In this document: piece by piece, positions 1 through 33,039 of the stretch
Position numbering within the stretch: position 1 is the stretch's first letter
Layout of the letters: each line of letters begins with the position of its first letter
Source of the DNA: Mytilus trossulus
Lineage: Eukaryota
Length of the DNA: 64,000 bases
Assembly: GCF_036588685.1 (NCBI RefSeq)
Contig: NC_086376.1
Location: forward strand, 27,404,001 to 27,468,000
Direction: 5' to 3'
Notes under the pieces: model-generated
Told to the model about the DNA's origin: nothing
Seen by the model: only the letters and a program-made list of their open reading frames with translations
The model's database searches: none
Position numbers and translations under genes: made by a program

Positions 1-722
1 AGTTTGTGTTTTATTTTCTATTTCGTCAAAAAAACATGGACGTCATGGCTAAAAATAGAACACAGGTTAAAAAGCAGTTTTTGGCTTATATATCTAAAAA
101 AAAAAAAAAAAAAAAAAAAAAACTCCAGCATTTAGAGCAAATAAGACAAGAAGTTAGAGTATTTATAAGGTCAAGTCTACCTGTCCTGAAATTTTCAGCC
201 AAATTGGGTAACTGGTTTTTCAGGTATAATGCCCCTGAGTTGATGATTTTAAAGGAATTTTGCAGTTTTTGGTTATTATCTTGAATATTATTATAGAAAC
301 AGATAAACTGTTAATAGCAAAAATGTTAAGCAAAGTAAGATCTACAAATAAGTCATTTGACCAAAATTGTCAATTGACCCCTTAAGGAGTTATTGCCCTT
401 TTTTCACAATTTGTTCATCATGTTGACTTACTTTAAAAAATCTTCTCCTTTGAAACTGCTGTATCAATTTCAGCCAAACTTAGGCTAAATGAGTTTCAGA
501 GTATTTAGTATAAATTTTATATTTTATTTCCTTGTATGTCAAGAAACATAGCTCCTATGGCTAAAATAGAACATAGGAGAAAATGATTTTTTTTTTGCTT
601 TTGAAGAAAATAGGACGATTCAAAGAACATTTAAGTAAATTGAAAAGCCAATATAATCATTGATGAGAGATTTAACCAAAAAACTTAAGGTGAGCTATTC
701 AGGCTCTTGAGAGCCTCTTGTT
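1..722 (+). mobile_element. 3' part of a non-autonomous Helentron/HINE-like dispersed repeat
   Basis: Ends in AGGTGAGC, then a short stem-loop (AGGCTCT-TG-AGAGCCT) and a T-run. Shares motifs with the minus-strand copy at ~47270-48010. Family assignment is inference. Confidence 0.5.
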
Positions 723-966
723 TTTTTCTTACACAATTTTCTTTTCCTACACTTATTTCATATCTCCAATGACAATGTGGGGACGTGGGGTATGTGAGCG
801 CTCTCACTAAGGTTCTTTAATTGCCAATGAGACAACTATCTACCAAAGTTCAATTGAAGTGGATGTTAGCCATTATAGGCAATTCTATACCCTTCAAGAA
901 TGAAAAAAACACCATGCTGTATAATCTCCTATAAAAGGTTCTGACATGAAAGATATGATAGGCCTG

Positions 967-1759
967 TATGGAACGCCATGACTGTCTTCTGATGTTGATT
1001 GTTTAATATGTTCGGTGCTTTATCCATTATATTCAGTAGTATGTATATTATGTTCAGTAGATATCCCATTATGTTCAGTAGTTATTACATTATGTTCAGT
1101 AGTTATTACATTATGTTCAGTAGTTTTGATATTATATTCGGTGCTTTGGTTATTATGTTCAGTAGTTTCATTATTATATGCAGTGGTATCTAAATTATGT
1201 TCGGTACTTCTGACTTTATATTCAGTACATTTTTCATTATGTTCAGTACTTTTGACATTATGTTCAGTAGATTCAATATTATTTGCAGTACATTATGTAA
1301 TACCTTCAGTAGTCCCGGTTTCTTTATATTCAGTAGATTATTCATTATGTTCAGTAAAAGCATCGGTATTATATTCGGTTCGTTCAACTTTATGTTCAGT
1401 GGTTGTATCATTATGATGATGTAGTAAAAGTCGGGAAGTCAATAACGGAAATTGTCGGAAAACAACGAACGCGGATATTTTTGGCGGACGTTTTATTCAT
1501 GAATACCTTTACGTGATTGAATGAAAATGGAAGAAATAAAAGCAGTTTTAAATCGGTGTGGTTTACGTTCCCAAGTTGGCATTTTCCACCAGGAAAAAAT
1601 AACTCCTGACTTAATTTGTAAGTTGTCGCTACAATATTTCGCATATTTAGGTATGAACGACAGGAGAAAAATAATGGAATGAAGAATAGCTTGTGTACAT
1701 TTCAGCAGCAATATTTTGACTAAGAATTATAACAAGTTTTTCATTCCCAAAGAAGCACT
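967..1759 (+). repeat. Left TIR of the IS3EU-like element, with ~21-bp subrepeats (ATTATGTTCAGTAG core)
   Basis: Reverse complement of 16587-17405 with only scattered substitutions and indels; mirrored by near-identical spurious ORFs in the track. Confidence 0.95.
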
Positions 1760-1996
1760 GGAATCCTTGCTTGAAATCGCTTTAAGATCATTTTACTGTT
1801 ATGGAAATTAGTGAGATGTTTAGTGTATCGGAGAGTACAATTTATCGGAATATGAAAATGTATAATTTGAGTAAACTTGAATTTTCTAACATTTCTGACG
1901 AGGATTTAGATGCTGGTATTGCAAAACAGGTAGTGGAATTTCCTTGCTGTGGAGTGATTCTTCTAAAGCAGATATTAGCCCAACAAAACATTAAGG
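1740..1996 (+). pseudogene. N-terminal HTH-like fragment of an IS3EU/IS3-type transposase
   Basis: FIPKEALESLLE..(frameshift)..FTVMEISEMFSVSESTIYRNMKMYNL...SNISDEDLD...EFPCCG...LAQQNIK resembles the HTH plus 'SxISDxELD..FPxxG' region upstream of eukaryotic IS3-like integrase cores. Ends at a possible donor AAG|GTTTGT. No DDE core found. Confidence 0.6.
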
Positions 1997-2664
1997 TTTG
2001 TTCCAAAACCCCAGTCCTAAATTGAATATTTTTAAACACTAGTATGTTCCTGATCCATTTCATGGCTTGACGATGGGGTCACCCATCCCGCCGATGTTCA
2101 GTACTTCAGTAATGTGATTAAAGTTCGTTATTACGTTCTTACTTGTGTTGTACTTTTACATCACAATCTCATGTTAGGGGAGGGTTGAGATCCCGCTAAC
2201 ATGTCTATCCGCGTCGTATATTCTGTATATATGATAATGTGTCGTTTGTTGGTGTGTTACATATTTGTTTTTCATTACTAATACGGCATAAGTTAATTAG
2301 TTTTAATTGTTTTATAGCTGAATTGCAGTATGGGCTGTGCTCATTGTTGAAGGCCGTAAGGTGACCTATAGTTGTTAATTTCTGTGTCATTTTGATCACT
2401 CAGTGTGGAGAGTTGTCTCATTGGCAATCATACGAAATCTTTGTTTTTACATTGACCATTTGGTATATGGCCGTGTTTTAGGCGACACGTACATACAGGT
2501 CATGCATACATTAACTATTTGAAAGAAATCAAATCGTTAACTACTAATGGGTGCCGTACACTACCAATAATTTACCCATACTTTTTTGGTACATTTCTAC
2601 CCTCGTGCATATCAGTACTGTTAGGAAAGACTGAAAACTTATAATGTTATACTTTCAATGAAAT

Positions 2665-2980
2665 AAGTACTGATTTTGTCAGTACTGTTTCAGTACTGAT
2701 TTTGACAGTACTGTTTTAGTACTGATTTTGACAGTACTGTTTCAGTACTGATTTTGACAGTACTGTTTTAGTACTGATTTTGACAGTACTGTTTCAGTAC
2801 TGATTTTATCAGTACTTTTTCAGTACTGATTTTGACAGTACTGTTTCAGTGCTGATTTTGTCAGTACTGTTTCAGTACTGATTTTACAGTACTGTTTCAG
2901 TTCTGATTTTGTCAGTACTGTTTCAGTACTGATGTTGACAGTACTATTTCGGTACTGTTATTTTCAGTACTGTTTCAGTA
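2665..2980 (+). repeat. Subterminal tandem array (CAGTACTGATTTTGA/CAGTACTGTTT), left CACTA arm
   Basis: Many copies of the palindromic octamer CAGTACTG in ~26-bp units; mirrored at ~15750-16035. Confidence 0.9.
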
Positions 2981-3428
2981 GAATTGGTGTTGTTAATCTT
3001 TTTAACTTGAATGTGTATTGTTTCAAAAAATATTTGGAACTGAAAACTTTTAAACTCGGTAAGTATAGTATGCTATATAATAATTTGTGGCATATTTTGT
3101 ATCTTTTGTAGATATCTCTGATTAAGTGTTTATCATTAGAGAAGTTTTTACAATGTGCATTTCAGTACAATTGGTATCCAAATATAGGTTTGATAATTTT
3201 GTGACAATATTATTATTATCCTTTTTTTAGCGGGTTACGTTTTTCTCTTAGACTATATCACCCTGCTGCGCAGATTTTTTTTAGCGACGTGAACATGACC
3301 AAGGAAAATTATTAAGCTTACTCTCGTCTATCGAAATACTATTGAAGCGAAGGAGAAAACAACAGAAATGAAGCAAGATAAGCAGTTTATCGGATTTTAC
3401 CCATTAGGAGCACCTGAATTCACTCCCG

Positions 3429-4317
3429 GGGCCGTGTCAACGAAGCTGTCCTAGGACTAAGACATGTCTTAGGATGGTCTTAGGACACGTCTTAGTCCTA
3501 AGTCGGGTTAACGAAAGTCTCCTAAAATAAGATATGTCCTAAACTTGGTCCTAAAGTTAGGATATACAATTAGGTGTCTTAGGATAGTCCTAAAGGTTAC
3601 ATCGTCCTAAAACGTAATAAAAAACAACAAATATGCATAAACTCAATACTAAAAATACTAATACAATATTAAACTATCATAAATAAAATTAATTAAAAAA
3701 AAATATTGTTTAATGTTTGTTAAAGATTTAATTGTATTATATTAAATTATTTCGTGCTGCCTTTTTTGAAGCCTACAACAATACTATCATCATAAGCAAC
3801 ATATTTTAAATAATTCAAATATGGGAAAAAGTTTACTTCTTTTTTTACCTAATCCTGATTCGATACATGTAATGAAATCGAGTGGACCTAAGGACAAAAC
3901 TAGTTTATGTCCTAAAATTGCAGCACGAATATCACAAAGTTTTGTGACCATTTACTTTTGTTTTCGTATTAAATTCATTTATATCTTTTATCATATTTAA
4001 TAACGTATTCATTAGTTACCCGAAATTTTTTTTAACTTTTATTTTGGGTTAATTGTTTTCTATATAAGAGTCATCCTCCCTCTCTTTACATATAGGTTCT
4101 AAAATACAATTTAATCTATGTCATACAAATCTCTACATATATTTTCAATTAAATAAATGTGTTAGGATGGTCCTAGGACCATCGTAGTTAGGACAGTCCT
4201 AAGACAGCTTTGTTTTACATCCTAAGACATGTCTCAGACACGTCCTAAGACCATCCTAAATAATGTCCTAAGACCTATCTTAGGACATATCCTAGGATAC
4301 TTTCATTGACACGGCCC
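3429..4317. mobile_element. PIF/Harbinger-type MITE
   Basis: TIRs GGGCCGTGTCAA..TTGACACGGCCC, 3-bp flanks CCG/CTG, subterminal TAGGA/TCCTA repeats. An empty-site copy of the target lies at ~4455-4500. Confidence 0.8.
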
Positions 4318-7210
4318 CTGGTTTTTAATGGAGTTCGTGTTGTCTTTTATGTATTTTTCAAAGTGTTGTTGTAAATGCCCTTTTGTTTTGTGATTCTTTG
4401 CTTACTTCTTGACTTTGGTTGTGACTGTCTTTCAGTGTTTATAAAAATATTACGCATTAGGAGCACCTGAATTCACTCCCGGTTTTTAATGGAGTTCGTG
4501 TTGTTTTTATATATGTATTTTTCAATGTGTTGTTGTAAATGCCCTTTCGTTTTGTGATTCTTTGCTTACTTCTTGATTTTGATTGTGACTGTCTTTCAGT
4601 GTTTATAAAAATAATACGCACTCGACATCAGGAAGATTCACACTGTGGTTCGAGGCTGATATTTTACAGTATCAATTGTATAATAGCGCATAATTTATAT
4701 ATATATCAAACAAGTCTTAGATTAGAATCTTCAATACTGTTCATTTTTTGGTATTTTGCTATTGCTTAAAATATGTTGTAATTAATGCAGTTATATGTAA
4801 TACTATGTTAGACAATGCATTATAATCAACACAAAACAATGTCTCGATTACCTTATTTTTAATCATAACTGGAATTTCTTTTATTTATCATAACCATTTT
4901 TTAATATATAATAAAACATTCAATGTCATACCAACATGTAAAGTTTGTGGCAAAAATCTCTGTCATTTTCATGCCCCTTGGTTATTTTATGACCCTTTAA
5001 AGCCCATAAATAAAACAATCAAAGAAACAATTAATTTTGCATGTTTCATGTTTCATTGCTCTCCCCCTATGCCATCTTTTCTTTGGAATGCTTTGTTGAA
5101 TGTCAGTTTCCTGGCTTTTTTCCTCAATTCAGTCCCGGATATGATGTGTCTTTTTACATGTACAGTGGTAATTCAAGAGGACACTTTAGTTCTAAAATGA
5201 GCTCATTATGAGCATCCACCTTTAATGTTTTGGTACTTGTACGAAACTCAGGATTCAATGGTTCATGATTAAATGTTGGTGGGTTTTTTTCTGATGAGTG
5301 CCATGTTGTCTAGATACATCATTTTGTTTATAGGTCTTCAATTTTCACATCGAACATTCCCATGTCTGCTCCTGTCTCCATTGCTGTTAATCATTCTGAG
5401 GAAAGAAAATGTAATGAATTTATAAATAATAAAATTGAGAATGGATATGGGGAATGTGTCAAAGAGACAACAACCCGACCAAATAAAAAACAACAGCAGA
5501 AGGTCACCAACAGGTCAAGGCTACAATAAATTATCTTATGTTAAAACTTTCCTCATTTCTGTGTTATTAATAAGTAAAAATAAAAAGAATGCACAATTAT
5601 GGAAGGGAATGGTATGACATCAAAATGTACTTATTACTTTATATACTACCATAAGTCCAGTAATCACTAATGAACTGGACTTCTGATACTACATGTATAT
5701 ATAATATTATAATCAATCAAAGTTGAAATTTGTTTCTAAATAAAAAAAGAGGAAAATATGATAATTTAATTCATCATCATCAAAGTATTGGTGTTTGCCA
5801 GTGGCAAGTATTTCATACACGTGTAGCTTTAACCATCGGTCTAGTTATGTGCTCTTTATAATAAGAGTGAAACAACGACGAAAGACATTTTAAAAATATA
5901 TACTAACTACTTTATACAAAAGTACATTAATGTTTAATAGATTGAAGTGGAAATTTAATTTAATTGAAAATTTATCGTACATAGTCATATATGTAGCACC
6001 TAGCCAGAGATGTTATACATCTATCTATGGTAGCACACAGAAACGTGTCCGATTCCTCAAAAACGCGTCAATGTGACGTCAATGATTTGATAAACATGTC
6101 AAATTGCACTGGGGAAACCACTTCTGCGGGACGCCGGTCGAGCAGTACCCTCATAGACATACATTTTGTAAAAAGACATTTATAGGCATCATCGGATAAT
6201 ATTAAAACAATAGAATTTACTTACTATTTATAAACGATGATTTAAACTTTACAAAACTTATTAAATGCAATGTTAATGGTTTTTTTTCTAAATACGCATG
6301 ACATATTTGCCACTGGACATTAAGTAATCAATAGTTAATTATGTGTTGTAAACTTAGCCTGCAGTTATGCTTGTTATGAATTACCTATGCTGAACAAACT
6401 AATATTTATCAATGACATACAGTTGAGTGGTCAAGCACCGGGAAGAAAATACAATATAAAATGTACATGATGTATTAGTTTTCTAAATTGTGAAGTACCT
6501 CTGTCTGAACTTTATAATAATGATAATCATATTGATAAAGAAAATCATAAATTAAAGCGCTTCAAATAAAAATAACTTTTTATTGTGCATTTTTTTTTAA
6601 CCAGACCTATAGTCTGTGTCTGCAAGCAGAAGAAATCGTGCACAGTGTAGCATACCTTGGACATTTGTCTGTACGGATTACTAAACCTTTCCTCCAGATT
6701 TTTTTTTGGCACCTGCTTTGACTTTTTTTTCTAATCATTTACAATCCAACCGAACAATACGGGTTCTATCGTATCCCACACCATTAATATTGAATTGCGT
6801 TTTTACTTTACAGAGTATCATTGGGGGTATATGAGTTTTGAAATATTCTGGCGTTTTTAACCGGACACATTCTTAAATTATCGGACACGTTTTTGAGATT
6901 GTAACAATACAAAAAAGGTTATTGTCTTAAGTCATGAGTTTGGTATTCAGAAGTTGGTTTTCAAGTTTGAATGGTTTTACATTAGTCACTTTTGGGGCCC
7001 TTTACACCTTGCTGTTCGGTGAGAGCTCATGCAGACACGGTGTTGAAGACCGTACTTTGACCTATAATGGTTTACTTCTACATATTACGACTTATATGAA
7101 CAGGAGACTTTTCTCATTGGCAGTTATACCACATCTTCTTATATATTAATACAACACTGAGCCACCCAACCCATCCACCCAATTACTCGTTTGTGAGGGT
7201 TGCTTAGAGT

Positions 7211-7291
7211 CAGAGGTGGATTTAGGGGGGGGGGGGTCATATAGGTCAGTCAGTGGGCCCCCACTTATGTAAATTTCTGGATCCGCCACTG
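7211..7291. mobile_element. Small CAG..CTG (hAT-like) MITE
   Basis: CAGAGGTGGAT..GATCCGCCACTG with 5-bp direct repeat AGAGT. Confidence 0.6.
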
Positions 7292-8308
7292 AGAGTGGTT
7301 ACACCGGGCCAAAAATGCATCGGACTGAAACAACATACTGGTTGTGTGTACACTGACAATCAAATTAAAATTAAAAAAATGCATAAAATATTGTAAAAAA
7401 TAATTTTTCATTTGAGTGCATTTACGTAACAATAACACAATGTAACCGTAGACATAAATATCATTGTTACACTCGTAAGTATTCTATGTAGTTCCTTAGT
7501 CAACCCTAGGTCTGCATTCCGGCGATATAGCCTAAACTTCATTGTAACAATAACTTTTTTACGACTGTTACATTTCAAATTGAATGTAACCATAGCCGGT
7601 ACCAAAATAAAATAGAAATTTAAATATTTCACAGACATCTTTATTTACAATATAAAAATAGGAAGACTGTTGAATGATTTTCAGTGGCAGATTCAGAGAG
7701 GGGCGAAGAGGGCGTACGCCCCGACCCCCCCCCCCCCCCCCCCCCCTTTGCTCGGACTTTTCTGTTTTTTTGTTTTTTGTAAAATGATTAATCAGACTAG
7801 ACTTCGTGAACTTTTCCATTTCCCGAGTATTTAATTTTTATACGACAATTCTTTACTTATAAAGACATTTTTCGCTGGCCGGTATTTACTGATTGTCAAA
7901 GTCATGTGATTTGCTATGGTGGAGTTGACCAGTGCGTTGAAAAAACGGCACTCGGTCATTTTGAAATTCAAATTACAGTAATACACATTGCTTAGGCTGA
8001 GGTTGTCATGACAATCAGGAAACCTTCAAAGCGACACAGGATTGAACAAGAACGTATTGACTTCTATTTCACTTTTCCACTAAACAGAAAATAATGGTAA
8101 AAACTCTATAGACTATTACACTGTCATGAAAAAAAAAGTTCCACAATATTATTTACCTACATGTACGAAAACATGTTTAACAAATTGAATGATCCCCAGT
8201 CAGTAAAAGCTCTAGAAAGATTTCAAGTCTCAGGTACGAACCATTTGATTTGAGGAGGCAGTCTGAGATATTTGAGAGAAAAAAAAATGACTCTGATTCT
8301 TGCCTTAA

Positions 8309-8887
8309 GGTGGTATGGGTGTCTTCCTCCATCTTGGATTGTAAAAAACAGTGAACCAAAGGTCCAGATTTTCTATCATGTTAGCAAAATTTGATGCAGG
8401 AATGCAGATATTCAATATGAATTTTCTTTTAAAAGAACCAATTTATAAGAATATAACTTATACATTTAAATATTTTTGCAAATGAGGATAATTTTTGTTT
8501 GTTTTTTATTTTATTTTAAATTGCCATTTTAAGGGGAGGTAACTCTTAAATAGTGCATTTTCTGTTGGATTCTACATGGAATTTTCATATTTTGTATTTT
8601 AGCTAGAAAAAACTCACGGTGACCTTATCTTTTCTTTAGAAATTCTCAAAGCATTGTCTGAAAGCTATCTTCTCCTTAAGTATTTAACAATTCTATCATT
8701 TTGTTTAGTTTCTAACCACAAAATGGTGTTTTTTCCTGTATAATCCAATTTGTCGTGTCCTGTAGCTTGAGAAAATGCGCGGTGACCTATCATTTTCATT
8801 ATCTATTTCAACATATATCAATAGATACTACATTTTGGCAAAGTATGAACAAATTCTATCATTTTTATTTTAGACTCCCATACCACC
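8309..8887. mobile_element. Kolobok-type MITE
   Basis: TIR GGTGGTATGGG(T/A)GTCT at both ends, TTAA on both sides. Confidence 0.8.
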
Positions 8888-10251
8888 TTAAACAAAAATG
8901 TTGGCCGTATCTGGATTGAAAACAATAGTCTTGTCCACTTTTTTGCTATTAAAAACTAAAATTTCCAACAAAAATATTTAGCATGAAATGAACATGATGA
9001 ATAAAAACGGGCGTATTTTTTGTGGCCGGGGTTTGCATGTCTGACTGGAATGTCTGTTTTGCCGGACTTATATATATTGAATACTTTTTTCAAGACCAGA
9101 CTGCATGCAACCTGCCTACTGGATGTGACTTTTATGTCTCCATTTGTTGACCGTCATTCATAACTTCGTTGTCATTTCAGACACGTTCGTAGTCTTTGGT
9201 GGATTTGGAACCCCTGACTTCGGTTCCCTAAGTTATGTTGGGTGAAACATATCAATCAAACATTTTGATAAAAACTGCTTGTTTGTCTTTTTTAACTCGT
9301 GTCGGTCGTATTGTAAATTTCATCTAATTTCCATGTCTATTTTTTACTGACAAGTCCTACATCAAATATATCAGTACATAGCTGTGGATCAATACTATCA
9401 TTTTATGATAGACAATTAATAGGGAGAATACAGCATAAAAAATGTCCAACCCTTACACTTTACAGCAACTATAAGATATGCATGCCCCAAGCCATGGCAG
9501 GAACCGTTTAAATGCTGCATATAACACTTATTTTATTTTTTTTAGCCCAAAAAAGGTCCCAAAAAAATTCCGACTCGCTCCGCTCGGCAAAATTTAATAT
9601 CTTCGCCCCCCTTTCAAAAATCCGAGATCCGCCCCTGATTTTTACCACATCAAATGCACAATGAGCAAACCCATATATCGCATTTCCCAGATCACATTGT
9701 ATGCTAAAAAAATATTTAAAAAAAACAGAAGTAACAGAAATGTTGTTGTTAAATCATTTCAAACGAGATCACTTATATATAAAAATATACATATATGCAG
9801 CAACAACTGAACAGCAACAAACACAGCAGTCAATGTGGCGAGATGAAATAATTTTGTAGGCACCTAGGACTTATATATTAAAATGTTTCCGAAATTAAAT
9901 GAAGCATTGGGCCCTATAAAAAAAATCCTGTCAAAATAGGAAACACATTTTTAAAAGGGGGTTCCAAATCTGGAGATAGGGTTTCCAAATAGATTTCCCT
10001 TTTCAAATTTATGCATTTATCGTTAAAAAGGGGTCCAACCTTCGGATCCCTCTCCCTTCTTACGCCGAGGGGTGTACCGCACCTCCCTTTATCCAATCAT
10101 ATGTTTAGGCTGATCATTTAACAAACATCAATTTGACAAATATTAATACTATAATCTATTTAATAAGGTTTGGCAAAGAAGTAATAATATGTATATCCAA
10201 AACAACCCGCGATTTTATACCTATTTTGACATTTACAGAAAGTTCTGTAAC

Positions 10252-10535
10252 CAGAGGCGGATCCACCCATTGTTTTAAAAGAGGGTTCCAAACACAGGCA
10301 CTTGTTTCTATCCATACGAAGGTCAACAAGTGCCTGTGGTTCCAAACACTCGGGATAAAAGGAAAAAGGGGGGTTCCAACTCAGTCGCCTAAAGATTTCA
10401 TAATTAATAAATTATAGCGAAAAAATGGGGGAAATAAAATATTTTAAGTAGTATTATATATAGAATAATGCTTGAACGTCCAAAATATTTTGGTGTTCCC
10501 ACCCCCGGAACCCCAGGGGCAGGGGTCCGCCACTG
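10252..10535. mobile_element. CAG..CTG (hAT-like) MITE
   Basis: CAGAGGCGGA..TCCGCCACTG with 6-bp direct repeat TGTAAC. Confidence 0.65.
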
Positions 10536-10750
10536 TGTAACGCGTATTCTGCTTTTTTAACTAACGTAATATGTTTTGAATTAGCTATGCTACACTTTTC
10601 TCAGTTTTAATATATTCAATGTACTACTATACCTTGATCTACCTTCAATCCCATTGTGGTATTCAATCCAGAAGAAGTTTGAACTGTTGAACTGTTGATC
10701 ACCGTTGAAATGTCAGTGCGAGTGCAAAAATAACGTTTGTAAACAATGAA

Positions 10751-10772
10751 TGACGTCATGTGTAAATCCAAT
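10751..10772 (+). promoter_or_regulatory. Candidate promoter: CRE (TGACGTCA) plus CCAAT box
   Basis: Perfect TGACGTCA at 10751 and CCAAT at 10768, in a CpG-richer stretch ~220 bp upstream of a first-exon-like ATG. Confidence 0.4.
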
Positions 10773-10983
10773 CACATCAACGTTTTACAATAGGCAATTG
10801 TATGTTCCATATTGACGCGCTTTTGTGATTACGATAATAACATCAACGGCAAAATTTGAGACAACAGTTGATCAGCCGGGAAGGATAGGATACAGAAATA
10901 CAGCAGAGAAAATATCGGTTTACCAGCCACTTGTAGAAATTCTTAAATTTACAGAAAGAGACGATTGTTACGACAAGTCAGAG

Positions 10984-11047
10984 ATGGCGGATCCTTTTCG
11001 AATCATCTACGGATTGCTATTGTTCATGTATGTTTTACAAGTCAAAT
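10984..11047 (+). other. Orphan first-coding-exon-like segment encoding a signal-peptide-like sequence
   Basis: gagATGG context; MADPFRIIYGLLLFMYVLQVK+T, then donor GTATGT (phase 1). No intact downstream exons found. Confidence 0.45.
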
Positions 11048-13947
11048 GTATGTCTTACTCCATCACATGTTTTATTCCGTGAGCATCCTGTCAGATCATA
11101 TATTTTGCCGGAATCAACATTCTGTATACTGTGTCAACAGAATACACAATGTTGATTCTGTATTCTGTTGACACAACATTCTGTATTCTGTTGACATTTA
11201 TACAAAAACAATGTCTTTCCCTTCAAGAATTTAGTTCAAATTTATGTTGTTCATAAGGGAACAGAACATTCGATTTACATATATATATATATTTGTTTAT
11301 AAAAAAAATGCCGTATTATTGCCAACGACACAACAACAACAGCAACAACATATATTTTATTTGCCAATCGTGGCACCCAAAATGAGCGGAATAATCACAA
11401 CTCTCCACAACAGATCAGATGACCAGAAATTAACAAATATAGGTCACCATTCGGCCATCAATAATGAGCAAAGCCATATCGCATAGTCAGCTAAAAAAGG
11501 CACCAAATGACAAATGTCAACGAATTCAAACAAAAAAACTAACGCGGTTCTTCTTCATGTACAAAAATGAACGAACAATGAATATGTAACACACCAACAA
11601 ACAACAACCACTGAATTACAGGCTCCTGACTTCGGACAGGAACATATATACAGAATGTGGTGAGGTTAAACATGCTAGGGTCTTCCCCCCTAAACCTGGA
11701 ACAGAGTTGTAACAGTACTACATAACAACAAACTATAAAATTCAGTTGAAAAAGGCTTATTTAACTTTAAATAACAGATGAATGCAAATAGAAATACATC
11801 TCAGTAACAAAAACATAATGGACGTTACCGTTACTCAACAAAAAGACACTAAATACAGATCTGAGAGTACTTGCAGATACTGACAGCTAGTTCAAAGCCA
11901 CTAACAACTAATAACAAAAATCATGCATCTAACTTCAAAGACTTAGTTCATAGTTTTTTATACTTCTGTTGATTATATTTAATCTTAGTGTTTTCCTTCT
12001 GTTAAAAAGAGATTAAATAACAGACGCAATGTTCAACAAATTTGTTTAAAGATGGAAAATTGGTGTTACATTCGTTTAATTTATAATAATACACACAAAC
12101 TAAAGAGACAGAACGACAAAGTTTGCCTCAAACGACAAGCAAGAATAAACCAAGAAACAGAAAACAGACAATTTTCCAATGTCCTATTTGGCTGGCTTTC
12201 ATATTATTCCCATTGTTGACACTACTAAATTGTCATATTGTTACCTATTGTAGTATTTTAATCAGTAAGACTTTCTAAGATAACAATACGAATACTAAAA
12301 ATCTGGACTAAAAATAAGGCGTATAGGTACAGTTTTCAATTTGTTAGCGGGCATGACGAAAAACAGCGAATCAAAGAATTCAACTTTATTTAAAACTAAT
12401 AAAGGACAATGCAGTTGATTAAACAAAATACTCCATTTCAGGACCTTTTGTTTGTTCACGGGTGTGTTCTAGTAGTTTAAAATGATCCTACTGAGATTCC
12501 TCAAAATAATAACATATTAGAGTACAAGTATTAAAAATTTGCTTAATGTCCAGTAGCAAATATTACATGCATGTTCAAAACAATTGTTAAATAAGTACAA
12601 TAGGTAAGTCCTGTAAAAAATTGTCATCTGGGGTGAAAGAAGGTCAATAAAACTTGGACTGCCACTGGACAACGAAAGCATATTGAAGGTGGACAGGAAT
12701 TTGCCCTGCTGCATATTCAGACAAAAGGCCACCGACGGCCTCTCGAAGAGTTGTTGCAATAGTTATTAACCTGCAGAGATCATGGCACTCTCTTTCTATA
12801 CATGCTATATGAGGCATCCGATTAAAGGTGACCAATCTTACATTTGTTGAAAATTAAACATCCCGCACAATTTTACTACCAATGGTTTTACTGTTTTTAC
12901 TGTATCACATAAACATTATCCGTTGTGATGACTGACTTGCACTTCTGGTGACACTTTCTTAGTGAGAATGTGTTCACATATGGAACATATCTTGTCCTTA
13001 TGTCCCACGTAAGTGTCATTAATAACTCCTGAACCACTTTACAGAATTTTGTAAATCATCGATGCAATCTTTATCTCATGGTGTATTTTTGCAAAGGACA
13101 ATTTACAAAATGTTACGTCCATAATTAATACCATAACATGCATGTTGGGAAAAACAACTTTTTATAAATGCATGCAAAGTATTTGATGCAGTATGATATA
13201 TTGTTATAGGTATCTAAAAATGGATCCCACCAGAACATAAAGACTAAGTCTATGAGGAAAATAAAGTTTTAGATCAACGACTTAAAATTGTCATGAACAG
13301 ATAAAATATGAGATAGAGATAGAACTGGTATGAAAGGTGACAGTAGAACATTGAAATAATTTGAAAGGTAGGTATATATATATAGTTTTACACTCAATTA
13401 TGATTTTTTTAAAGAAAGTATTTGCAGTTATTCCTATAATTTTATTTGTTGCCGATCCAAAGATGTCAGAGTGTTACAGCAGGACATAGTTGAACTTAGG
13501 AACCTAAAGGAAATATAAACAAAGATCTCCTTCTCTGTAACCGAATAACAGATTTAAAAGATAGTAATTTATCATAATGAGAATTTCCACTGGTACTAAT
13601 AATGAAAAACTTCACAAAAAGAATACTTTTATTTAATTTTTAAACTATTGCATATGTAGGATTGTAACTGAGACAACTATCCACCAAATTTGAGACGATG
13701 TAAATGTGAACAATAATATACAACTGTGCAGACTTCAACAATGAGAAAACCCATACCGTATTGTCGGCTACAAAAGACCATGAAATAAACAATATATGAA
13801 ACAATTTAATTCAGAAAAATTAACGACCTAATTTATAACAAAACGAATTAAAAATGTTAAAAGTGCAGCCCGTATTGAAAACATGGACATTTGTCATGAA
13901 CCCAGACTTGGGACACTAAAATTCTTCTCCAAATCGTATAAGATCAG

Positions 13948-14090
13948 GCCCTGAAGTCTTACAAAATTTTCCCAGTGCCCGGAGAAAAAAAATCGTGGTC
14001 GAAAATTGAAATCCAGCATTTTGATTGGTTGATTTGTTGATTTTGGAGTTTGAATAAATAACTGACTCGAACGTTTAATGACTTCAAGGC
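13948..14090. mobile_element. Short PIF/Harbinger-type MITE
   Basis: GCCCTGAAGTC..GACTTCAAGGC with CAG on both sides. Confidence 0.65.
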
Positions 14091-15749
14091 CAGTTTTCAA
14101 GTAGGTAAATCAAACATTGTTCCATTTTTTTTCTTTCATTTTTCTCCCTGTATAATATAAACCTTCTATAATTAACGTTATACCACCTTTAGCAATGCAT
14201 GTACACTGATTCACATTATGTCATGGTTGACCTATGTTTAATCTTATTATTGGACTTTAACAAAATGATAAATGTTGTAATCCACTTTTTCCTTTCCAGA
14301 AACAAGTTGGCAAAGATATATATCACATGCATAGGAAGAGCAATGGAAAATAACATTGAAGCAGAATTATGAAACAGTTATTTTAAAAAAACATTAAATT
14401 GAGGGAGAGAAAAACACATTTTTTTACTTTTTAATGCTGTTCATTCTTAAGATTACTGTTTATTGTATTTCGATGGAAGTTATTGCAGTTGATAAGAAGA
14501 TAGAACAAAAATTTGAGTTCTTCAGCTTGTTTTATTCTGTCAATAAACATTAATTTTGAAAAGCAAACCATATATGTTCAAAAATCAAAAAGGTTAATTA
14601 TGTACCAAATGACCTCCGTCAGACATTAATCAGTCTGTTGGAAATCTTAAGTTTCTTTAAATTTTTATGCTTATTTTACAAAATGTACCTTTGTTTGTAT
14701 GTCTGTAATTCAAATCAATCAGAGATTTCTGAGGAACTACGAACCAAGAGTTTCTGAAAGTCATCAGTCCGCATGTGAACATGCTCTACTGAGTAATGTA
14801 GTTCTTACCCTTTCAACTCCCCGTTAACGGGATGCCTGAATATTGTAACACCAAACTTCATATATTCTTTTCGTAAAATACGCTCTGCAGTTTTATAAGA
14901 AAGAGTACAAGAGTTATGCATACAAGTATCTAAGTTACTATTCACAATAAACTCATTACAAGTGAATGAAATTGCAGCATGATTAAGGTATACAAAAAAA
15001 AAGAAATCTGTCAATAAATGTATTTAACCATTAAAAATCTTACAATGAGCATATGATTGGAAATTTATTTATGAGAAGTTAGACTAAAAAAAGTGGTCGT
15101 ATTCTGAATATTCCCTCAGCTCACAGTAAAAGGAGAAAAACATACACTGTTCAGTCTGAAGGTACCTGTCATGTAGGGGGACATGTCTTATAGCAGATTT
15201 TCTCCTTGTGGTGAACTAGGATGTTAAAAAGGAGCTCAGTGCATTATTGGTCTAGTTCTGTACAAAATATGTTAATTACATTGTATTTATATCTGAGTAT
15301 CATGTCCTCTTCCTGTACTTAACTTGCCACTGGATCACATAACATCAATCCATCCACCCATCTTCTCAAAAGTAATATATCGAGTTCCAATGTTCAATAT
15401 GTTCTGATTTGACTCAAGCAATATATAAATACATGTAATATGGTATTGTCAAATAAAAGTATTAAAAACATAAACCTTGTAGACCACACAAGATGCAATT
15501 CTGACAATAAATATGACATAAAGCCAGAATATTTAAAAAAAAAAAAAAGATAAAGTAACTGTCGAAGAACTGGATCTAAAGCTGAACCACTGCAGGACAA
15601 CAAAAATCAGAGAAATAAAAAAAAAAAATAACGAAATCATTAACATGTCACGATATAGAAAATGAATGGAAATGGGGTAAGTGTCAAAGAGAACAATTAA
15701 CCCACCCCAAATATACAAAACAACTAGGCATCACTATACAGATACAGTG

Positions 15750-16138
15750 TTATAATGAAACAGTACTGAAGAAATTAGTAACGAAACACTACTTACGAAA
15801 TCAGTACCGAATCATTACTGACAAAATCAGTACTGAAACAGTACTGTCAAAATCAGTACTAAAACAGTACTGTCAAAATCAGTACTAAAACAGTACTGTC
15901 AAAATCAGTACTGACAAAATCAGTACTGAAACAGTACTGTCAAAATCAGTACTAAAACAGTACTGTCAAAATCAGTACTGAAACAGTACTGTCAAAATCA
16001 TTACTAAAACAGTACTAACAAAATCAGTACTGATTTCATTGAAAATATAACATTATAAGTTTTCAGTCTTTCCTTACAGTACTGATATGCACGAGGGTAG
16101 AAATGTACCAAAAAAGTGTAGGTAAATTATTGGTAGTG
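15750..16138 (-). repeat. Right arm of the CACTA element with CAGTACTG array
   Basis: Reverse complement of 2559-~2980. Confidence 0.9.
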
Positions 16139-16586
16139 TAGGTGGTTTACCGGAATTTTCTTGGCATGTTAGAGATAGGGTGTTAATTCATAGAACAGAC
16201 AAGGAAAGTGTCAAATATTTCATGTATATTTTAAACATAGAGAGCCTTACCTCGGCAGCTTTGCCAAAACAAACCTTCTTTTTTTCTGATATGTGCCTTC
16301 GGACTTTGTGTTTCGAATTGTAGTTACTTTTTCCATACTACGTATTTATCCTAATTCAAGCTCCATGTGATACAGGAAAATAGTATCTTGGAGCAAGGCT
16401 ATTTCCTTCTTTTTGGGGTTGGGGGGGGGGGGGGGGGGGGGAGAGACTCCTAGCAAACAACATGTTTATAATGGCATTGTAGATTTTCTGATTAAATAAA
16501 TGATAAAGTTACCGATCCGGTACATAAATAGATCGGTTAAAAAGCATTTTTTTTAAATTTTAGTTGGAATGGAAAAGCTTAATACG

Positions 16587-17405
16587 AGTGCTTCTTTAGG
16601 GAATGAAAAACTTGTTATAATTCTTAGTCCTAATAATGCTGCTGAAATGTACACAAGCTTTTCTTCATTCCATTATTTTTCTCCTGTCGTTCATACTTAA
16701 ATATGCGAAATATTGTAGCGACAACTTACAAATTAAGTCAGGAGTTATTTTTTCCTGGTGGAAAATGCCAACTTGGGAACGTTAACCACACCGATTTAAA
16801 ACTGCTTCCATTTCTTCCATTTTCATTCAATCACGTAAAGGTATTTATGCATGAATAAAACGTCCGTCAAAAATATCCGCGTTCGTTTTTTTCTGACAAT
16901 TTCCGTAATTGACTTCCCGACTTTTACTACATCATCATAATGATACAACCACTGAACATAAAGTTGAACGAACCGAACATAATACTGATGCTTTTACTGA
17001 ACATAATGAATAATCTACTGAATATAAAGAAACCGGGACTACTGAAGGTATTACTTAATGTACTGCAAATAATATTGAATCTACTGAACATAATGTCGAA
17101 AGTACTGAACATAATGAAAAATGTACTGAATATAACGTCAGAAGTACCGAACATAATTTAGATACCACTGCATATAATAATGAAACTACTGAACATAATA
17201 ACCAAAGCACCGAATATAATGTCAAAACTACTGAACATAATGTAATAACTACTGAACATAATGTAATAACTACTGAACATTATGGGATATCTACTGAACA
17301 TAATATACATACTACTGAACATAATATACATACTACTGAATATAATGGATAAAGCACCGAACATATTAAACAATCAACATCAGAAGACAGTCATGGCGTT
17401 CCATA
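16587..17405 (-). repeat. Right TIR of the IS3EU-like element
   Basis: Reverse complement of 967-1759, with one extra ~21-bp subrepeat. Confidence 0.95.
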
Positions 17406-20400
17406 GGCCTGCATTATACTGCATGTGTTATCTTTGATGATTTTAAACATACATACAAATGGTAAAAGATATATTTTTGTGAATATTGATCACGTATTAG
17501 TCTATAGCCTGTAAATGTTTGTATTGCCTAAACCACAGTATGAATATGAGTTATGGGAATAAAACACCAAATACATATTAAGGGTATAAAGTAAACTTAA
17601 ATAAAATTTTCTGTTACTAACAATACATGCTTTGATATTTTAGTTATGTTTACTGTATAAGTTTGCATGACTAAAATTATAAGCAAGAGGTCAATTATTT
17701 TGATGTAAATAATATTGCGTATGTGAAGGATTTCTATAAATGACACAAATGAATGAAGGGGGTTTCAAGTTGATATGAAATGAAATGATCACAATGAAGA
17801 TATATATATATATATATTTTTAGTTGCAACATTAAAAGTCTCAATCTTTTGGCTGTAAACAAAAAAATATTTAATAAATAAAAATGATTTCCCTAAATTC
17901 GGTCAATTGAGGCAATGGGATAGTTTTTAAAAGGTGAACATTGTTATCACTGATAGGGGATTATTAATCTTGAAAATAAACATCTGATACGGTCATGCTT
18001 TTAAAAACAATGTTTTTCGTGATGTAACGACAGATAAGTTAACGTACAGTGATGTAATAAAAGTGTAATTTATATCCTCCTTCTGAGTAGGAAAAGTTAC
18101 ATAAATCAATTAACTTGAAAGGTTTAAAAGATATTACCCCAAAATATATATATAAAAATGGGAAGATTGTACATGAAAAAATGTTGGAACAGTCAGGAAA
18201 CACTTACAGTATAGTATTATACTGTCTTAGTCTGATAAGTAGCGTAAATAGGAAGTGTTTATGAAATCTCCTTTGTAAACAGTGTATTATACATTGTACA
18301 TTGTGGTTTTTACAATATTTCATGCCTTCATATATCGTAAATATGAAAAAAACAAATGTGTGAGGAAGTATAGGTAAACATGATGAAAGTATGAAGGGAG
18401 TAAAAGCATTTATGTGTAAAATTTCTGGCAAACATCCTCAAGAGGGAGGAAATGGTCTCCTTCATCAAAATGATATGTAAGTTATTAATAATTATTTATG
18501 AAGACTGTGAACTTTTATTTTTCTTATATATGTACAAATATAAGTTGTCGGGTAACATGGCAAGACTAAATGTAGACATACTTCAATGATACAGCAATCT
18601 AACAACACAGTGGAATTAGAAAGTGACAAATGTGTTTCATTATCTGACTACTAGTTTTAAGTGATGTCTGCGTCCTTGGCATGACTAGATAAAATATATA
18701 GATGTTTATCTTATTTGCCAACTAGGCATTCAGCATACAGCATATATAAGGACGGGCTTATTCTGAACTGGAAAAATGGTTTGTGAGTTTGTAAAGGGTA
18801 TATATAAAATTAATCTTGGCTTTATATTAGAATATGATGAGATTTCTTTCTTTTAGAACTCTGATTTGACATATAATTCATTTAGGCCTAAGGATATTTC
18901 AACAATAATGAAAATATTCATTCCTCAATACCATATTAGGTTATCCTTATCATTTCTATTTAATATATTTCTCACGAATTTTTTAATTTTAATATTTCCA
19001 CATGATTATCAGTATGCATTCATTATTTTCCTCTTATATTAGACTAAATGTGTGAGACAGAAAAAACAAATGTTGTCTTGAGGCCATTTTGAAACAGATT
19101 AATATCATCATTGATCAAAAACATGGTCATTGATGTTTTAATTATGTATTGAGAAGAAACTAGAATGATTCAGCATTACATGTATACATGTCCAATGTAT
19201 TTGTCATTGGTTAGCTAATATTATAAGGCTTGTCTAGGCTATTTAGGATTATAATATTATAATCTACTCCTTGTAAAATCATTTTTAGGCCAAGTTAAGG
19301 ATACACAGAAATTGCAGTATATTTTTATCTTAATTTGTCATCTACATAAGGAAGTGATTTTTACCTGTGACAAGGTAGAACAGATAAATAGATATTTATT
19401 TACATAAGATTTAGTGTGTAATGGAGATTTTATAGTTTGTTAGAAATGACAATATGTATACAATTTGTCAATCTGTTTTTTTATTTTTATTTTTACACAA
19501 ACCAGACAATGCGCTTATTATCCTTTCCTCTTTGAAGCCTTTTGAAAGTTTAGTTGATAAAAAGACCAAATTTGACTTTGATTTGTTTTCATGTGCAGGT
19601 GAAATGTATCAAAGTTTCTTTTTGAATACAACATGAATTTTAAGAAAAATAGTGCTTTGGGTGCATGTTGAATAGTTGTAAATGAGTACAAATGTTAATT
19701 TTTGTCTCTTTTTTCATAACTTGATTTCTAACTGGCATTTGTTTAACATCATCATGTACTTGTACAATGAAACAAAAAAAGATCAAATACAGATTTGTGT
19801 GTTCTTGTTTTGCCTTGATTCACTCCTACAAATCTGAGATGATATATGAATTATTAATTAATCTTTTCTTACTGACTTATTTTAAGTAAAACATTTTAAG
19901 AATAATTAAAATTCAGGTTAAATTGTCTTAAAGAACATCTAAATTTCTGTGGTCTTTAAATAACTTTATATTGATGTGAAATTATCTAAATAAATTTATC
20001 TACAAATCTATATCAATGTCAAAGATGATCAAAGGGTTATAATAAATACAACAACAATAATATAAATAGCAAAGATAATGTTTAATTAGGATTAGGAAAA
20101 TTATTAAAATAAGAAGATAAACTAACAGTATTTTAAAATTGTTTTAAAAACTCCTTCATTAGTATCTGTCACCCAAATATTAAAATGTTGACCAAAGTAT
20201 ATACCATTCCTTGTAATGACAGAACTGTTGATCGATTGATCTTGCTAAACATCCAAAAATATTAAAAATCTCTAAAAAAAACAACTAAACTTATTTTATC
20301 ATAAAACACATAGATTTCAAATAATGAAAATTACAAAATTAGCAGTGTTAATAATCTGCAGATTATCTGTAATCAACTGGTTTATTTATTAAATACATGA

Positions 20401-32700: not shown

Positions 32701-33039
32701 GATTACATTGGGGAAAGTGAAGGAGAATTTGGATTCAAGTCGGGAGAGAATGTTGAAGTATTGCAACAAACAGACGAATGGTGGTTTATAAAGGTACATG
32801 AAGAAGAGGGTTGGGCTCCAGCATCATATATAGAAAACTGTGAAACAACAAAATTTGATGAGGTCTTTCATCAACAGTATCGAGCAGTTGTAGAATTTTT
32901 TGCTGATGCTGATGGTGAAATAGATTTGAATTATGGTGACATTTTGGACGTTTTAGAAGAAACGGACACTGGGTGGTGGTTAGTTAGGAATGGTAGAATG
33001 GAAGGTTGGGCGCCTTCTGAATATATGGAAAAGGTGTAA
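20706..33039 (+). CDS. SH3PXD2A: Five-SH3 adaptor, Tks5/SH3PXD2A-like (PX domain not present in window)
   Basis: Phase-compatible GT-AG exons: 20706-20776 (candidate first), 21972-22117, 24663-24773, 25402-25519, 27000-27258, 28846-28962, 29976-30083, 31060-33039. Five SH3 domains (WW..G[WI]xPxxY). The [21 protein letters not shown] segment is typical of Tks4/Tks5. Long Pro/Lys/Ser linker with PxxP motifs. Confidence 0.8.
21972..22117 (+). CDS. SH3PXD2A: Tks5-like exon, SH3-1 N-half
   Basis: tttcAG|..[49 protein letters not shown]|GTGAGT. Confidence 0.9.
24663..24773 (+). CDS. SH3PXD2A: Tks5-like exon, SH3-1 C-half
   Basis: [40 protein letters not shown] flanked. Confidence 0.9.
25402..25519 (+). 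CDS. SH3PXD2A: Tks5-like exon, SH3-2 N-half
   Basis: [40 protein letters not shown]. Confidence 0.9.
26700..26867. mobile_element. CAG/CAT..CTG (hAT-like) MITE
   Basis: CATTGGCGGATCCAG..CTGGATATGCCCCTG with 5-bp direct repeat TATGC. Confidence 0.6.
27000..27258 (+). CDS. SH3PXD2A: Tks5-like exon, SH3-2 C-half plus linker
   Basis: [15 protein letters not shown]...[11 protein letters not shown]|GTTAGT. Confidence 0.85.
27951..28264 (+). mobile_element. Helentron/HINE-like non-autonomous element
   Basis: Starts at a T-run with ATGCCCC..GGGGCAT hairpin, then a GTCC microsatellite. Ends GGGGCAT..stem-loop..TTGTT. Confidence 0.55.
28846..28962 (+). CDS. SH3PXD2A: Tks5-like exon, SH3-3 N-half
   Basis: [39 protein letters not shown]. 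Confidence 0.85.
29357..29690. repeat. 54-bp minisatellite, ~6 copies, intronic
   Basis: Unit CTGTTACTGACACAACAAAGTATATTGAGGTCCTTCAAAGAGAATGCTTTTGAT, near-identical copies. Confidence 0.95.
29748..29939. mobile_element. TA-flanked (Tc1/mariner-type) MITE
   Basis: TA-CTGTGGATTCATT..AATGAATCCACAG-TA. Confidence 0.75.
29976..30083 (+). CDS. SH3PXD2A: Tks5-like exon, SH3-3 C-half
   Basis: [36 protein letters not shown]. Confidence 0.9.
31060..33039 (+). CDS. SH3PXD2A: Tks5-like terminal exon: proline-rich linker plus SH3-4 and SH3-5
   Basis: 656-aa ORF preceded by tttcAG. Acidic Tyr motifs EENVYHDI and DDYEIP. Two C-terminal SH3 domains. Confidence 0.92.
   Translation, partial: EENVYHDIGEVADDADNSFNDDDTDSDDYEIPDPVKDDIKHEESVNNKLNDINTALQMRIKPSDLSNTKHGTSDKGAVKRPNSKPPPPPMAMKPVEIDVDDQISSQKTLKSPISNEPPLPPPKKGKDKPSLPPKKDNTGSANFQSVLKAKNTSDKPPQPPPKNSKPASLGSGFKNNSSDVSDQNKSPLAELKSKLTKPRDERKADNLLSPGQQRYKYTDVVPKDQRQSASQQESLVGVLKSKFGKRHDSSDDSISPVTSPKSDTGTKAFVLPQKTFHKPATPPKNVSPMSPKRLNHTPGKDLTRQHEEETSVNKSMGELKARFEKQQPEVSKKRPLKPKTVTNTHKSNSSISSESSSSTVDDKPSVKTSALKAMFEHSNSEPVSKQKLVAKTSSGSSKASGIAARSSKFESDKPLLKPPVQRSNNFSSNQLPLWSKSKVDQSKPMPVIPHKPLKPKTSIPPPLPAKSSSSNTEKVRPKLAIPQKPSNVDKNHNEMGDKQRGITEVSKIIANGKQSTTSQEESEPPTPPQKDYEVLSKCTSSQYKTLFDYIGESEGEFGFKSGENVEVLQQTDEWWFIKVHEEEGWAPASYIENCETTKFDEVFHQQYRAVVEFFADADGEIDLNYGDILDVLEETDTGWWLVRNGRMEGWAPSEYMEKV

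Follow-up and report, generated by a model that had tools for sequence, protein, structure and literature searches.

The stretch of Mytilus trossulus DNA analysed here (64,000 nucleotides of contig NC_086376.1, hereafter the window) contains a nest of transposons. Comparison of the window with itself places an inner element with CACTA..TAGTG ends (2559–16138) within an outer element (967–17405; Table 1). The two concentric inverted-repeat pairs reported in the initial annotation were found again, as were the outer arms of about 800 bp with TAT..ATA ends and exact GGCCTG target site duplications (TSDs), and the TA on both sides of the CACTA..TAGTG pair.

Table 1. Features of the nested transposons (positions in the window; a dot marks features given no strand)
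Feature	Position	Strand	Basis or remark
Left TSD GGCCTG, 6 bp	961..966	.	sequence
Left arm: TATGG terminus, 21-bp subterminal repeats (about 1020-1356), leader, first 78 transposase codons	967..1759	+	
Dead 5' part of IS3EU-type transposase (likely exon 1, aa 1-153)	1527..1995	+	tblastn of P0001
Outer-only DNA, left: remainder of exon 1, likely intron start, piece of very high-copy genomic repeat	1760..2558	.	
Left TA of 2-bp TSD	2557..2558	.	joint 2555 to 16138 skips 13,582 = 13,580 + 2
Non-autonomous CACTA-type element, 13,580 bp, contig depth pointing to multiple copies, without a detectable gene	2559..16138	.	
Left end: 107-bp inverted repeat and 26-bp subterminal array, 12.2 copies	2559..2980	+	
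Nested 889-bp MITE, GGGCC..GGCCC ends, 3-bp flanks CCG/CTG	3429..4317	.	
Nested 81-bp MITE, CAG..CTG ends, 5-bp TSD AGAGT	7211..7291	.	
Nested CAG..CTG element, 5-bp TSD ATTTT, expanded by further insertions	7682..9637	.	
Nested 579-bp MITE, TTAA TSD	8309..8887	.	
Nested 284-bp MITE, CAG..CTG ends, 6-bp TSD TGTAAC	10252..10535	.	
Right end: 26-bp subterminal array and inverted repeat ending TAGTG	15753..16138	-	
Right TA of 2-bp TSD	16139..16140	.	
Outer-only DNA, right; open frames without Pfam match	16139..16586	.	
Right arm: inverted left-arm copy, with transposase codons 1-74 (16820-16599), stops at codons 13 and 52	16587..17405	-	
Right TSD GGCCTG, 6 bp	17406..17411	.	sequence

The outer and inner elements

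The outer arms (967–1759 against 17405–16587) are 94.3% alike over 826 alignment columns, with 774 matches, 19 mismatches and 3 gap events, corresponding to 2.4% substitutions. The ends read TATGG..CCATA, i.e. TA..TA as in IS3EU, and with up to 3 mismatches allowed the window contains two copies of this terminus and no others. Two random 6-mers at window composition would agree by chance, as the GGCCTG copies do, with p about 5e-4. TA..TA ends and a 6-bp TSD are given for IS3EU in the portion of PMC10045372 at hand; together with the transposase remnant described below, they support the assignment of the outer element to the IS3EU type made in the initial annotation. Without the insert and one TA, it measures 2,857 bp. 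In its left outer-only DNA, the repeat piece at 2310–2416 also matches 11397–11498. Among metagenome contigs, the outer terminus was found at two loci from other animals, which have only the first 22–25 bp in common with it. One of these (L001), taken as a relative, is a 2,835-bp element at 5779–8613 with TSD TGTAGG, whose arms of about 440 bp extend beyond the subterminal repeats; at the other (L002), just a single end is present.

The inner inverted repeat has 102 matches in its first 107 bases, the ends reading CACTACCAAT; here too, two copies of the terminus and no others are present in the window within 3 mismatches. The 26-bp tandem arrays inside the inverted repeats occupy 2666–2980 and about 15753–16033. 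Their motif, CAGTACTG, is present 17 times at the left end and 13 times at the right, and is absent from 3001–15740 and from 17406–64000. The TA/TA flanks alone are weak (p about 0.08), but they are backed by the empty-site joint described below. Pfam searches of the 102 open frames of at least 45 amino acids in the interior and the outer-only DNA gave no CACTA transposase, so the CACTA membership proposed initially rests on the ends, the subterminal repeats and the 2-bp TSD. TSDs of CACTA/EnSpm elements measure 2–3 bp; for animal ones, the consulted part of PMC6004678 gives CAC..GTG ends and a TSD of 2 bp, with ENS1_Cis of Ciona and the CMC-NA MITEs as examples. Two viral-contig loci matching the inner terminus were rejected as chance (50% GC, match over 23 bp only), and the inner end patterns had no match in prokaryote genomes; neither collection revealed an autonomous CACTA partner.

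The interior consists of nested MITEs and non-coding DNA, with no detectable gene or RNA family; stretches poor in repeats lie at 4670–5340, 10540–11340 and 12670–15340. None of the 102 frames had a Pfam match at the cut-off, sub-threshold SAP and DNA_pol_IIIA_C matches being rejected; one of these frames, compared with proteins, had no match, and no Rfam family was found in 900–17500. Nor was a captured host coding fragment found by Pfam in the 102 frames, a search that could miss short exons. The MITE at 3429–4317, which we take to be Harbinger-like, has an empty form in the neighbouring 164-bp tandem copy; the one at 8309–8887 is presumably Kolobok-like. With short motifs as queries, 1–22300 gave no match to PX-domain exons of the SH3 gene downstream, and hence no support for an intronic position.

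Transposase remnant and the origin of the arms

Both outer arms hold the start of a transposase gene, the match being a Mytilus edulis protein. In tblastn against the window, the Mytilus protein P0001 matches at 84% over amino acids 1–86 and at 91% over amino acids 86–154, and the remnant is interrupted by a stop at codon 52 (1680) and a frameshift between 1784 and 1792. The GT at 1996 is likely an intron donor; similarity stops at amino acids 154–159 in 19 of the 28 homologues that extend past amino acid 140. Residues 155–443 of P0001, including the DDE part, have no tblastn match in the window, so the outer element is not autonomous. P0001 carries the rva_4 domain (PF24764, E 2e-75 in a Pfam search) and its core resembles, by eye, the Repbase oyster protein IS3EU-1_CVi_1p in the part of the PMC10045372 supplement consulted. 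P0001 and P0127 are intact-looking Mytilus transposases of the IS3EU family, and the proteins CAG2199511.1 and CAC5420889.1 mark presumed sites of the autonomous element. Relatives of the transposase with flanking DNA were found neither in viral contigs (P0001, alignment A1) nor in prokaryote genomes. The transposase coding sequence in the arms, like the multi-copy state of the interior, is absent from the initial annotation.

Eight of 74 residues, including the stop at codon 52, are common to both arms and missing from the intact P0001 and P0127, making it likely that one arm was copied from an already dead left end. The arms could instead be native to an autonomous family, as inverted repeats of about 800 bp that include the transposase start and were homogenised by gene conversion, with no second left end involved. 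The arms of L001, which also run past the subterminal repeats, would fit such an origin, but the common stop and the seven other changes require copying after the death of the gene. A native arm of this kind is also at odds with the proteins: among 122 that match the N-terminal 82 amino acids, no clear second gene type starting with this domain was found (17 with divergent tails were judged by eye), and a weak search gave no longer forms. We consider native arms unlikely, though less so than the other alternatives weighed below, and prefer copying from the dead left end.

Contig depth, joints and the unit of spread

Contigs came from four public runs (X1, X2, X3 and X8) of three studies, X2 and X3 belonging to one; X1 may be related to the source of the window. 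The evidence comprises 32 pieces, selected by length from 278,538, together with 40 of 544 differences and 15 of 1,647 joints. All 27 listed interior pieces have depths of 1273–1462 (X1), 135–324 (X2), 120–264 (X3) or 184–271 (X8), and all five listed right-flank pieces have 11–32 (X1), 4.1 (X2) or 4.3 (X8), contig depth being a within-run proxy only and not a copy number. Relative to flank bins, the median interior depth in the four runs is 28, 28, 34 and 56. The listed interior pieces span 3007 to 15701 and cover 6,506 of the 13,580 bp, leaving 52% uncovered. The right subterminal array (15808) has a depth like that of the interior, and depth is similar from 2983 to 15808. Interior pieces diverge from the window by 1.2–1.4% and flank pieces by 1.5–3.6%; the interior value suggests that the inner family is young. 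What had been called genomic cargo does contain non-coding DNA and nested MITEs; it has no detectable gene and is likely not unique but multi-copy, at about 30–55 times single-copy depth, which would mean tens of copies in each genome.

In the four runs, interior depth exceeds that of the adjacent outer-only DNA by factors of 2.6, 2.7, 4.3 and 9.4, as judged from 11 interior places and three outer-only places (2062, 16350 and 16511); an outer-only place at 16233 (depths 2050, 209, 199 and 5763), where another repeat probably overlaps, was excluded. This difference suggests that most interior copies lie outside this IS3EU derivative. At 1484, within the left arm, depth (1649, 324, 358 and 208) is as high as in the interior.

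A joint from 2555 to 16138, corresponding to the outer element of 2,857 bp without its insert, occurs in three of the four runs and two of the three studies: in X1 at depth 202 (shorter side 78), in X2 at 43.6 (side 25) and in X3 at 22.3 (side 48). It was called at likeness 90 and marked 'between: not known', the side in X2 being under 30, and among the joints listed it is not present in X8. The joint supports both the nesting and the 2-bp TSD, and bears out the initial view that an IS3EU element of about 2.9 kb was expanded by a 13.6-kb insertion. A piece of the left flank, itself repeat-derived, has low depth in X1 and X8 and stops precisely at the last TSD base, 966, as an empty outer allele would; this end lies 43 bases from 924, counted inclusively. 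The listed joints do not include an outer one from 966 to 17412. Within the insert, joints from 7810 to 9431 and from 8302 to 8886 (the MITE at 8309–8887) were each listed in two of the four runs. The former has family-like depth in X2 and X8; because a nested MITE encloses it, this joint may stem from that MITE's family and does not bear on the large element. Contigs of family depth cross the left edge of the MITE at 10252–10535 in X2 (depth 135) and its right edge in X3 (depth 200), and this MITE is apparently carried by many copies of the large inner element. The longest contig pieces are under 900 bp and none spans the inner element, and a further full-length copy bordered by a separate TSD was not encountered.

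The initial annotation suggested that the composite travels as one giant unit. An IS3EU transposase would then use the intact outer ends and would have moved the whole 16.4-kb nest to several loci, which is conceivable given the perfect outer termini and TSD, the intact-looking Mytilus transposases and the arm depth at 1484, equal to the interior level. In X1, moreover, outer-only depth (305–675) exceeds that of the insert-free joint, leaving room for some insert-bearing copies, and that joint is the one missing among those listed for X8. The shallower outer-only DNA, however, makes the composite a minority of interior copies at most, and in X1–X3 the insert-free form accounts for at least a third of outer-only depth. 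Several moves of the nest are thus improbable: repeated movement is unsupported, and a single move is possible. Most likely, the spreading unit is the 13.6-kb inner element rather than the 16.4-kb nest.

The interior might also have multiplied through segmental duplications or as a tandem block, its CACTA ends being shorter elements that bracket it by chance. No contig joins an end to the far interior, and one X2 contig follows the window up to 13447 and then continues for 101 letters that do not align, a sign of structural variation among copies. Such a course is very improbable, as depth is even between the two ends and drops just outside both, and the empty site lacks exactly the end-to-end length plus 2 bp. 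A misassembly, or independent insertions paired by chance, could be imagined in a region so dense in repeats, but is hardly credible with arms that differ by 19 substitutions and 3 gaps, exact outer and inner TSDs and an insert-free form in other samples. Quite probably, then, the locus is a CACTA-ended element of 13,580 bp with no detectable gene, likely a multi-copy and non-autonomous cut-and-paste transposon with transposase supplied from elsewhere, at a TA inside a broken IS3EU-type element of 2,857 bp; the dead left end of the latter likely served as the template for its right arm.

Proposed history and comparison with known systems

The history would begin with the decay of an IS3EU transposase gene like P0001 and P0127, directly visible in the 5' part left at 1527–1995. 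A short element with two left ends may then have arisen through internal deletion together with inverted copying of the left 793 bp, probably by template switching during gap repair; the insert-free joint indirectly indicates that this form is present elsewhere in several copies. One copy would have inserted at GGCCTG here. The CACTA-type element entered a TA site and duplicated 2 bp, as read from the junction, and may have done so before or after that insertion. Depth further suggests a young CACTA family, at about 30–55 times single-copy depth, whose members pass on non-coding DNA, along with at least some of the nested MITEs, as they multiply. Following the En/Spm model, we take the 26-bp subterminal arrays to be putative binding sites of the partner's proteins.

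A broader proposal would have mussels harbour a young family of giant Pack-like CACTA vehicles of about 13.6 kb, which capture host DNA, gather MITEs, are moved in the 16.4-kb nest by IS3EU ends, act as a source of hemizygous blocks and hold captured exons or transcribed RNA in their interior. This we regard as quite unlikely; if true, such vehicles, each at tens of copies, would directly give rise to the large hemizygous blocks that underlie the open pan-genome of the mussel. In the part of PMC7653742 consulted, what transposons contribute to presence/absence variation in mussels is left open. The initial idea of an engine of such variation holds in so far as the element would make hemizygous blocks; with no detectable gene in the interior, these would not be gene presence/absence variation. 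Since no genes are seen to be moved, the impact would be on genome structure and annotation and not on gene content. At tens of copies, a 13.6-kb element would total about half a megabase. Viewed in one stretch at a time, its DNA would pass for unique, and repeat finders often overlook such DNA; the excerpt of PMC11202377 at hand describes large CACTA elements missed by RepeatModeler. The family would distort depth-based hemizygosity calls and is a concrete target for genotyping. The outer element, for its part, provides an example of an IS3EU derivative probably assembled out of two left ends.

Doubling of one end is a feature of foldback-like derivatives such as mariner-derived MITEs and double-ended P or Ds forms. 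The outer element resembles them in its long inverted arms, likely from the copied end of a decayed element; unlike them, it belongs to the IS3EU superfamily, and its copying mechanism is deduced. With IS3EU/GingerRoot, as far as Repbase and the consulted parts of PMC10045372 and PMC12730594 describe it, the outer element shares TA..TA termini (TAYGG..CCRTA in fungal families), the 6-bp TSD and an rva_4-type transposase, by eye close to oyster IS3EU-1_CVi_1p. It differs in being non-autonomous, the DDE part missing and no second gene found, and in its arms of about 800 bp, each of which includes the 5' end of the dead gene for the transposase.

Both superfamilies are already known, the inner element being an unusually large member. 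The literature searched holds no description of it or of a long non-autonomous EnSpm element in Mytilus; Repbase or Dfam may catalogue it. Non-autonomous animal CACTA/EnSpm (CMC) elements, in the available part of PMC6004678, share its CACTA..TAGTG ends, 2-bp TSD, subterminal tandem repeats and non-coding nature; unlike them, it is 13.6 kb and not MITE-sized, and its interior of non-coding DNA and nested MITEs is apparently conserved across many copies. Plant Pack-CACTA/Pack-TYPE elements, in the consulted sections of PMC8903248, PMC8978399 and PMC6379663, are likewise non-autonomous and CACTA-ended with unrelated DNA between the ends. In contrast to these, no captured coding fragment was found in the inner element, making it 'non-Pack' by the definition in PMC8903248, and it differs from the low-copy plant elements of that source in its animal host and higher apparent copy number. 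The KolobokP composite-like transposons of molluscs, as far as the portion of PMC9587614 at hand goes, belong to another superfamily, and the present locus consists of one element inserted into another, with no intact genes; both are composite-looking DNA transposon architectures in Mollusca.

Ends and nesting of the two elements

Self-alignment of the window, which has a GC content of 32%, bears out the coordinates and motifs that the initial annotation gave for both inverted-repeat pairs. The outer arms align at 94.3% over 826 columns (774 matches, 19 mismatches and 3 gaps), contain 21-bp subterminal repeats and end in TATGG..CCATA, with GGCCTG on either side. The inner pair has TA on each flank and an inverted repeat of 107 bp with 102 matches; 26-bp arrays are also present. 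Every terminus, outer and inner, occurs exactly twice in the window. Minus the insert and one TA, the outer element measures 2,857 bp.

Contigs of four public sequencing runs out of 24 listed (X1, X2, X3 and X8, from three studies) were aligned to positions 1-20000 at likeness 90. A joint from 2555 to 16138, skipping 13,582 bases (the inner element plus two), is present in X1 (depth 202, side 78), X2 (43.6, side 25) and X3 (22.3, side 48), and is not found in X8. The short outer element therefore exists free of insert, which supports the proposed nesting of CACTA inside IS3EU in three of four runs, and the inner target site duplication (TSD) has a length of 2 bp, matching the animal CACTA elements described in the available text of PMC6004678. 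An outer empty-site joint is absent among the 15 of 1,647 joints listed. Low-depth left-flank pieces of X1 (29.7) and X8 stop at 966, precisely where the TSD ends, but this is only a hint of an empty outer site, because the left flank is repeat-derived.

Features of the window (P0001 is an apparently intact Mytilus IS3EU-type transposase)
Feature	Position	Strand	Remarks
Outer arms	967-1759, 16587-17405		
P0001 residues 1-154	1527-1998		tblastn
Open frame	1786-1995		weak HTH signal
P0001 residues 1-74	16820-16599	-	tblastn
Inner element	2559-16138		CACTA..TAGTG
Tandem duplication	4320-4620		164 bp, adjoins 889-bp MITE
Exon-like stretch, inner element	about 5050-5400	-	no Pfam match
Nested short element	10252-10535		
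Exon-like stretch, outer-only DNA	about 16230-16430	-	no Pfam match
Multi-SH3 gene exons	21871-33039	+	SH3 domains in 31039-33036
Tandem repeat in SH3 gene region	29236-29718		about 57 bp, repetitive open frames
Exons with Ras-like and BTB domains	48596-51879	-	

The outer element

Judged from its sequence, the outer element is a dead IS3EU derivative; the transposase remnant, the TA..TA-type ends and the 6-bp TSD all agree with its original IS3EU label. In the available text of PMC10045372, IS3EU is defined by TA..TA ends and TSDs mostly of 6 bp, and that of PMC12730594 gives the termini as TAYGG..CCRTA. P0001, a 443-aa Mytilus edulis protein with PF24764 (rva_4), shares its cluster with a 445-aa M. 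coruscus protein, and the IS3EU-1_CVi_1p core in the accessible supplement of PMC10045372 is much like it, judged by eye without a tree. The open frame is 91% identical to P0001, which makes a Mytilus mussel the likely host. The left match to P0001 is interrupted by a stop (codon 52) and, near 1785, by a frameshift, and tblastn finds no match to the catalytic part anywhere in the window. Similarity ends at residues 154-159 in 19 of 28 homologues extending beyond residue 140, and at that point AAG is followed by GT in the window, so the remnant probably corresponds to an entire first exon.

The outer arms look like two left ends. Ten residues of the 74 codons common to both arms deviate from P0001 identically, and eight of these, the stop included, are absent from both intact proteins, which argues that one arm is a copy of the other, or was converted by it, at a time when the gene was already dead. 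A left end copied during gap repair could have become the right arm. That long inverted repeats are native to the family and were homogenised by gene conversion is possible but rather doubtful; the viral contigs and prokaryote genomes searched contain no DNA around an intact transposase copy.

A locus from another animal (L001) carries, at 5779-8613, a 2,835-bp non-autonomous IS3EU-type element with the 22-bp terminus of the window (one change at one end), the 6-bp TSD TGTAGG, subterminal repeats, and arms as long as about 440 bp. Ends of this kind thus mark a lineage. The L001 element contains two tandem arrays, one also found at L001 2495-4070, which may reflect capture of a satellite by an IS3EU derivative. 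In a 191-aa frame (P0005), the transposase N-terminus runs straight into subterminal repeats and terminus; this is a further deletion derivative, from a related family. The exon-like stretch in the outer-only DNA, with AG before it, GAG/GTAAG after it and a long C run, may be captured DNA or what is left of a second IS3EU gene.

Contents and depth of the inner element

The interior holds five nested short elements with clear ends and TSDs. Contigs of family-level depth cross both edges of the nested element listed in the table, which thus travels with the large element. The empty site of the adjoining MITE is seen in the second copy of the tandem duplication. No Pfam family reached the cut-off among 102 open frames of 45 aa or more, no Rfam family was found, and a protein search with one open frame gave no match. 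By the definition in the available text of PMC8903248, the inner element is a non-Pack, non-autonomous CACTA element, in which short captured exons could escape such searches. Its exon-like stretch follows a pyrimidine-rich acceptor near 5398 and is a candidate for captured or transcribed DNA.

By contig depth, a within-run proxy that is no copy number, the interior, genomic cargo in the initial annotation, is multi-copy. Among the longest 32 of 278,538 pieces, all 27 interior pieces have depths of 1273-1462 (X1), 135-324 (X2), 120-264 (X3) and 184-271 (X8), far above all five right-flank pieces (11-32 in X1, 4.1 in X2 and 4.3 in X8). Relative to the averaged depth of the three flank bins, the interior medians stand at 28-, 28-, 34- and 56-fold; relative to the deepest flank piece, they stand at 45-fold (X1), 44-fold (X2) and 56-fold (X8). 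Together, the interior pieces account for 6,506 of the inner element's 13,580 bp, in the range 3007-15701; none of the records extends across the whole element. Divergence of the interior pieces from the window is 1.2-1.4%, which does not exceed that of the flank alleles (1.5-3.6%) and suggests that the family is young.

Depth at the outer-only places 2062, 16350 and 16511 is 2.6, 2.7, 4.3 and 9.4 times below the median of 11 interior places (picked from 40 rows listed, excluding rows within high-copy repeats). Another outer-only place, 16233, does not fit (2050/209/199/5763); it is probably overlapped by another repeat and was excluded from this comparison. The depth step coincides with the CACTA ends, and an interior that is multi-copy yet not bounded by them is very improbable. 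To an artefact we give almost no credence.

Mobility, setting and comparison with known systems

We consider a multi-copy, non-autonomous CACTA element, inserted in a dead IS3EU derivative, the probable explanation. In the En/Spm model, the CACTA transposase pair needs terminal repeats and subterminal arrays in cis. The inner element has these sequences in cis and supplies nothing in trans. An autonomous partner encoded elsewhere (none was seen) would move it by cut-and-paste, and it would gain copies via gap repair or replication; one copy landed in the short IS3EU derivative. With intact outer ends, and apparently intact IS3EU transposases in the genus, the 16.4-kb nest might in theory transpose as the single travelling unit originally suggested, but depth places most interior copies outside it, and repeated mobility of the composite is unlikely.

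The exons of a multi-SH3 gene, which we take to be Tks/SH3PXD2-like, begin about 4.5 kb beyond the right end of the element. A search of 1-22300 brought up no upstream exons, so the nest may lie in an intron of this gene or upstream of it. The gene with Ras-like and BTB domains is presumably of RhoBTB type.

The literature search, with Repbase and Dfam outside it, gave no account of the inner element or of a long non-autonomous EnSpm element in Mytilus. In the text available, plants are known to have large CACTA elements that carry foreign DNA (PMC8903248, PMC8978399), insertions of transposons are an established driver of structural variation in oysters, with Mytilus unmentioned in that text (10.64898/2026.02.10.705023), and PMC7653742 leaves open what transposons contribute to presence/absence variation in mussels. 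Each of the two layers falls within a known superfamily, and nesting is common; the inner element stands out for its size and its apparent copy number, and the outer for an IS3EU shell with what look like two left ends.
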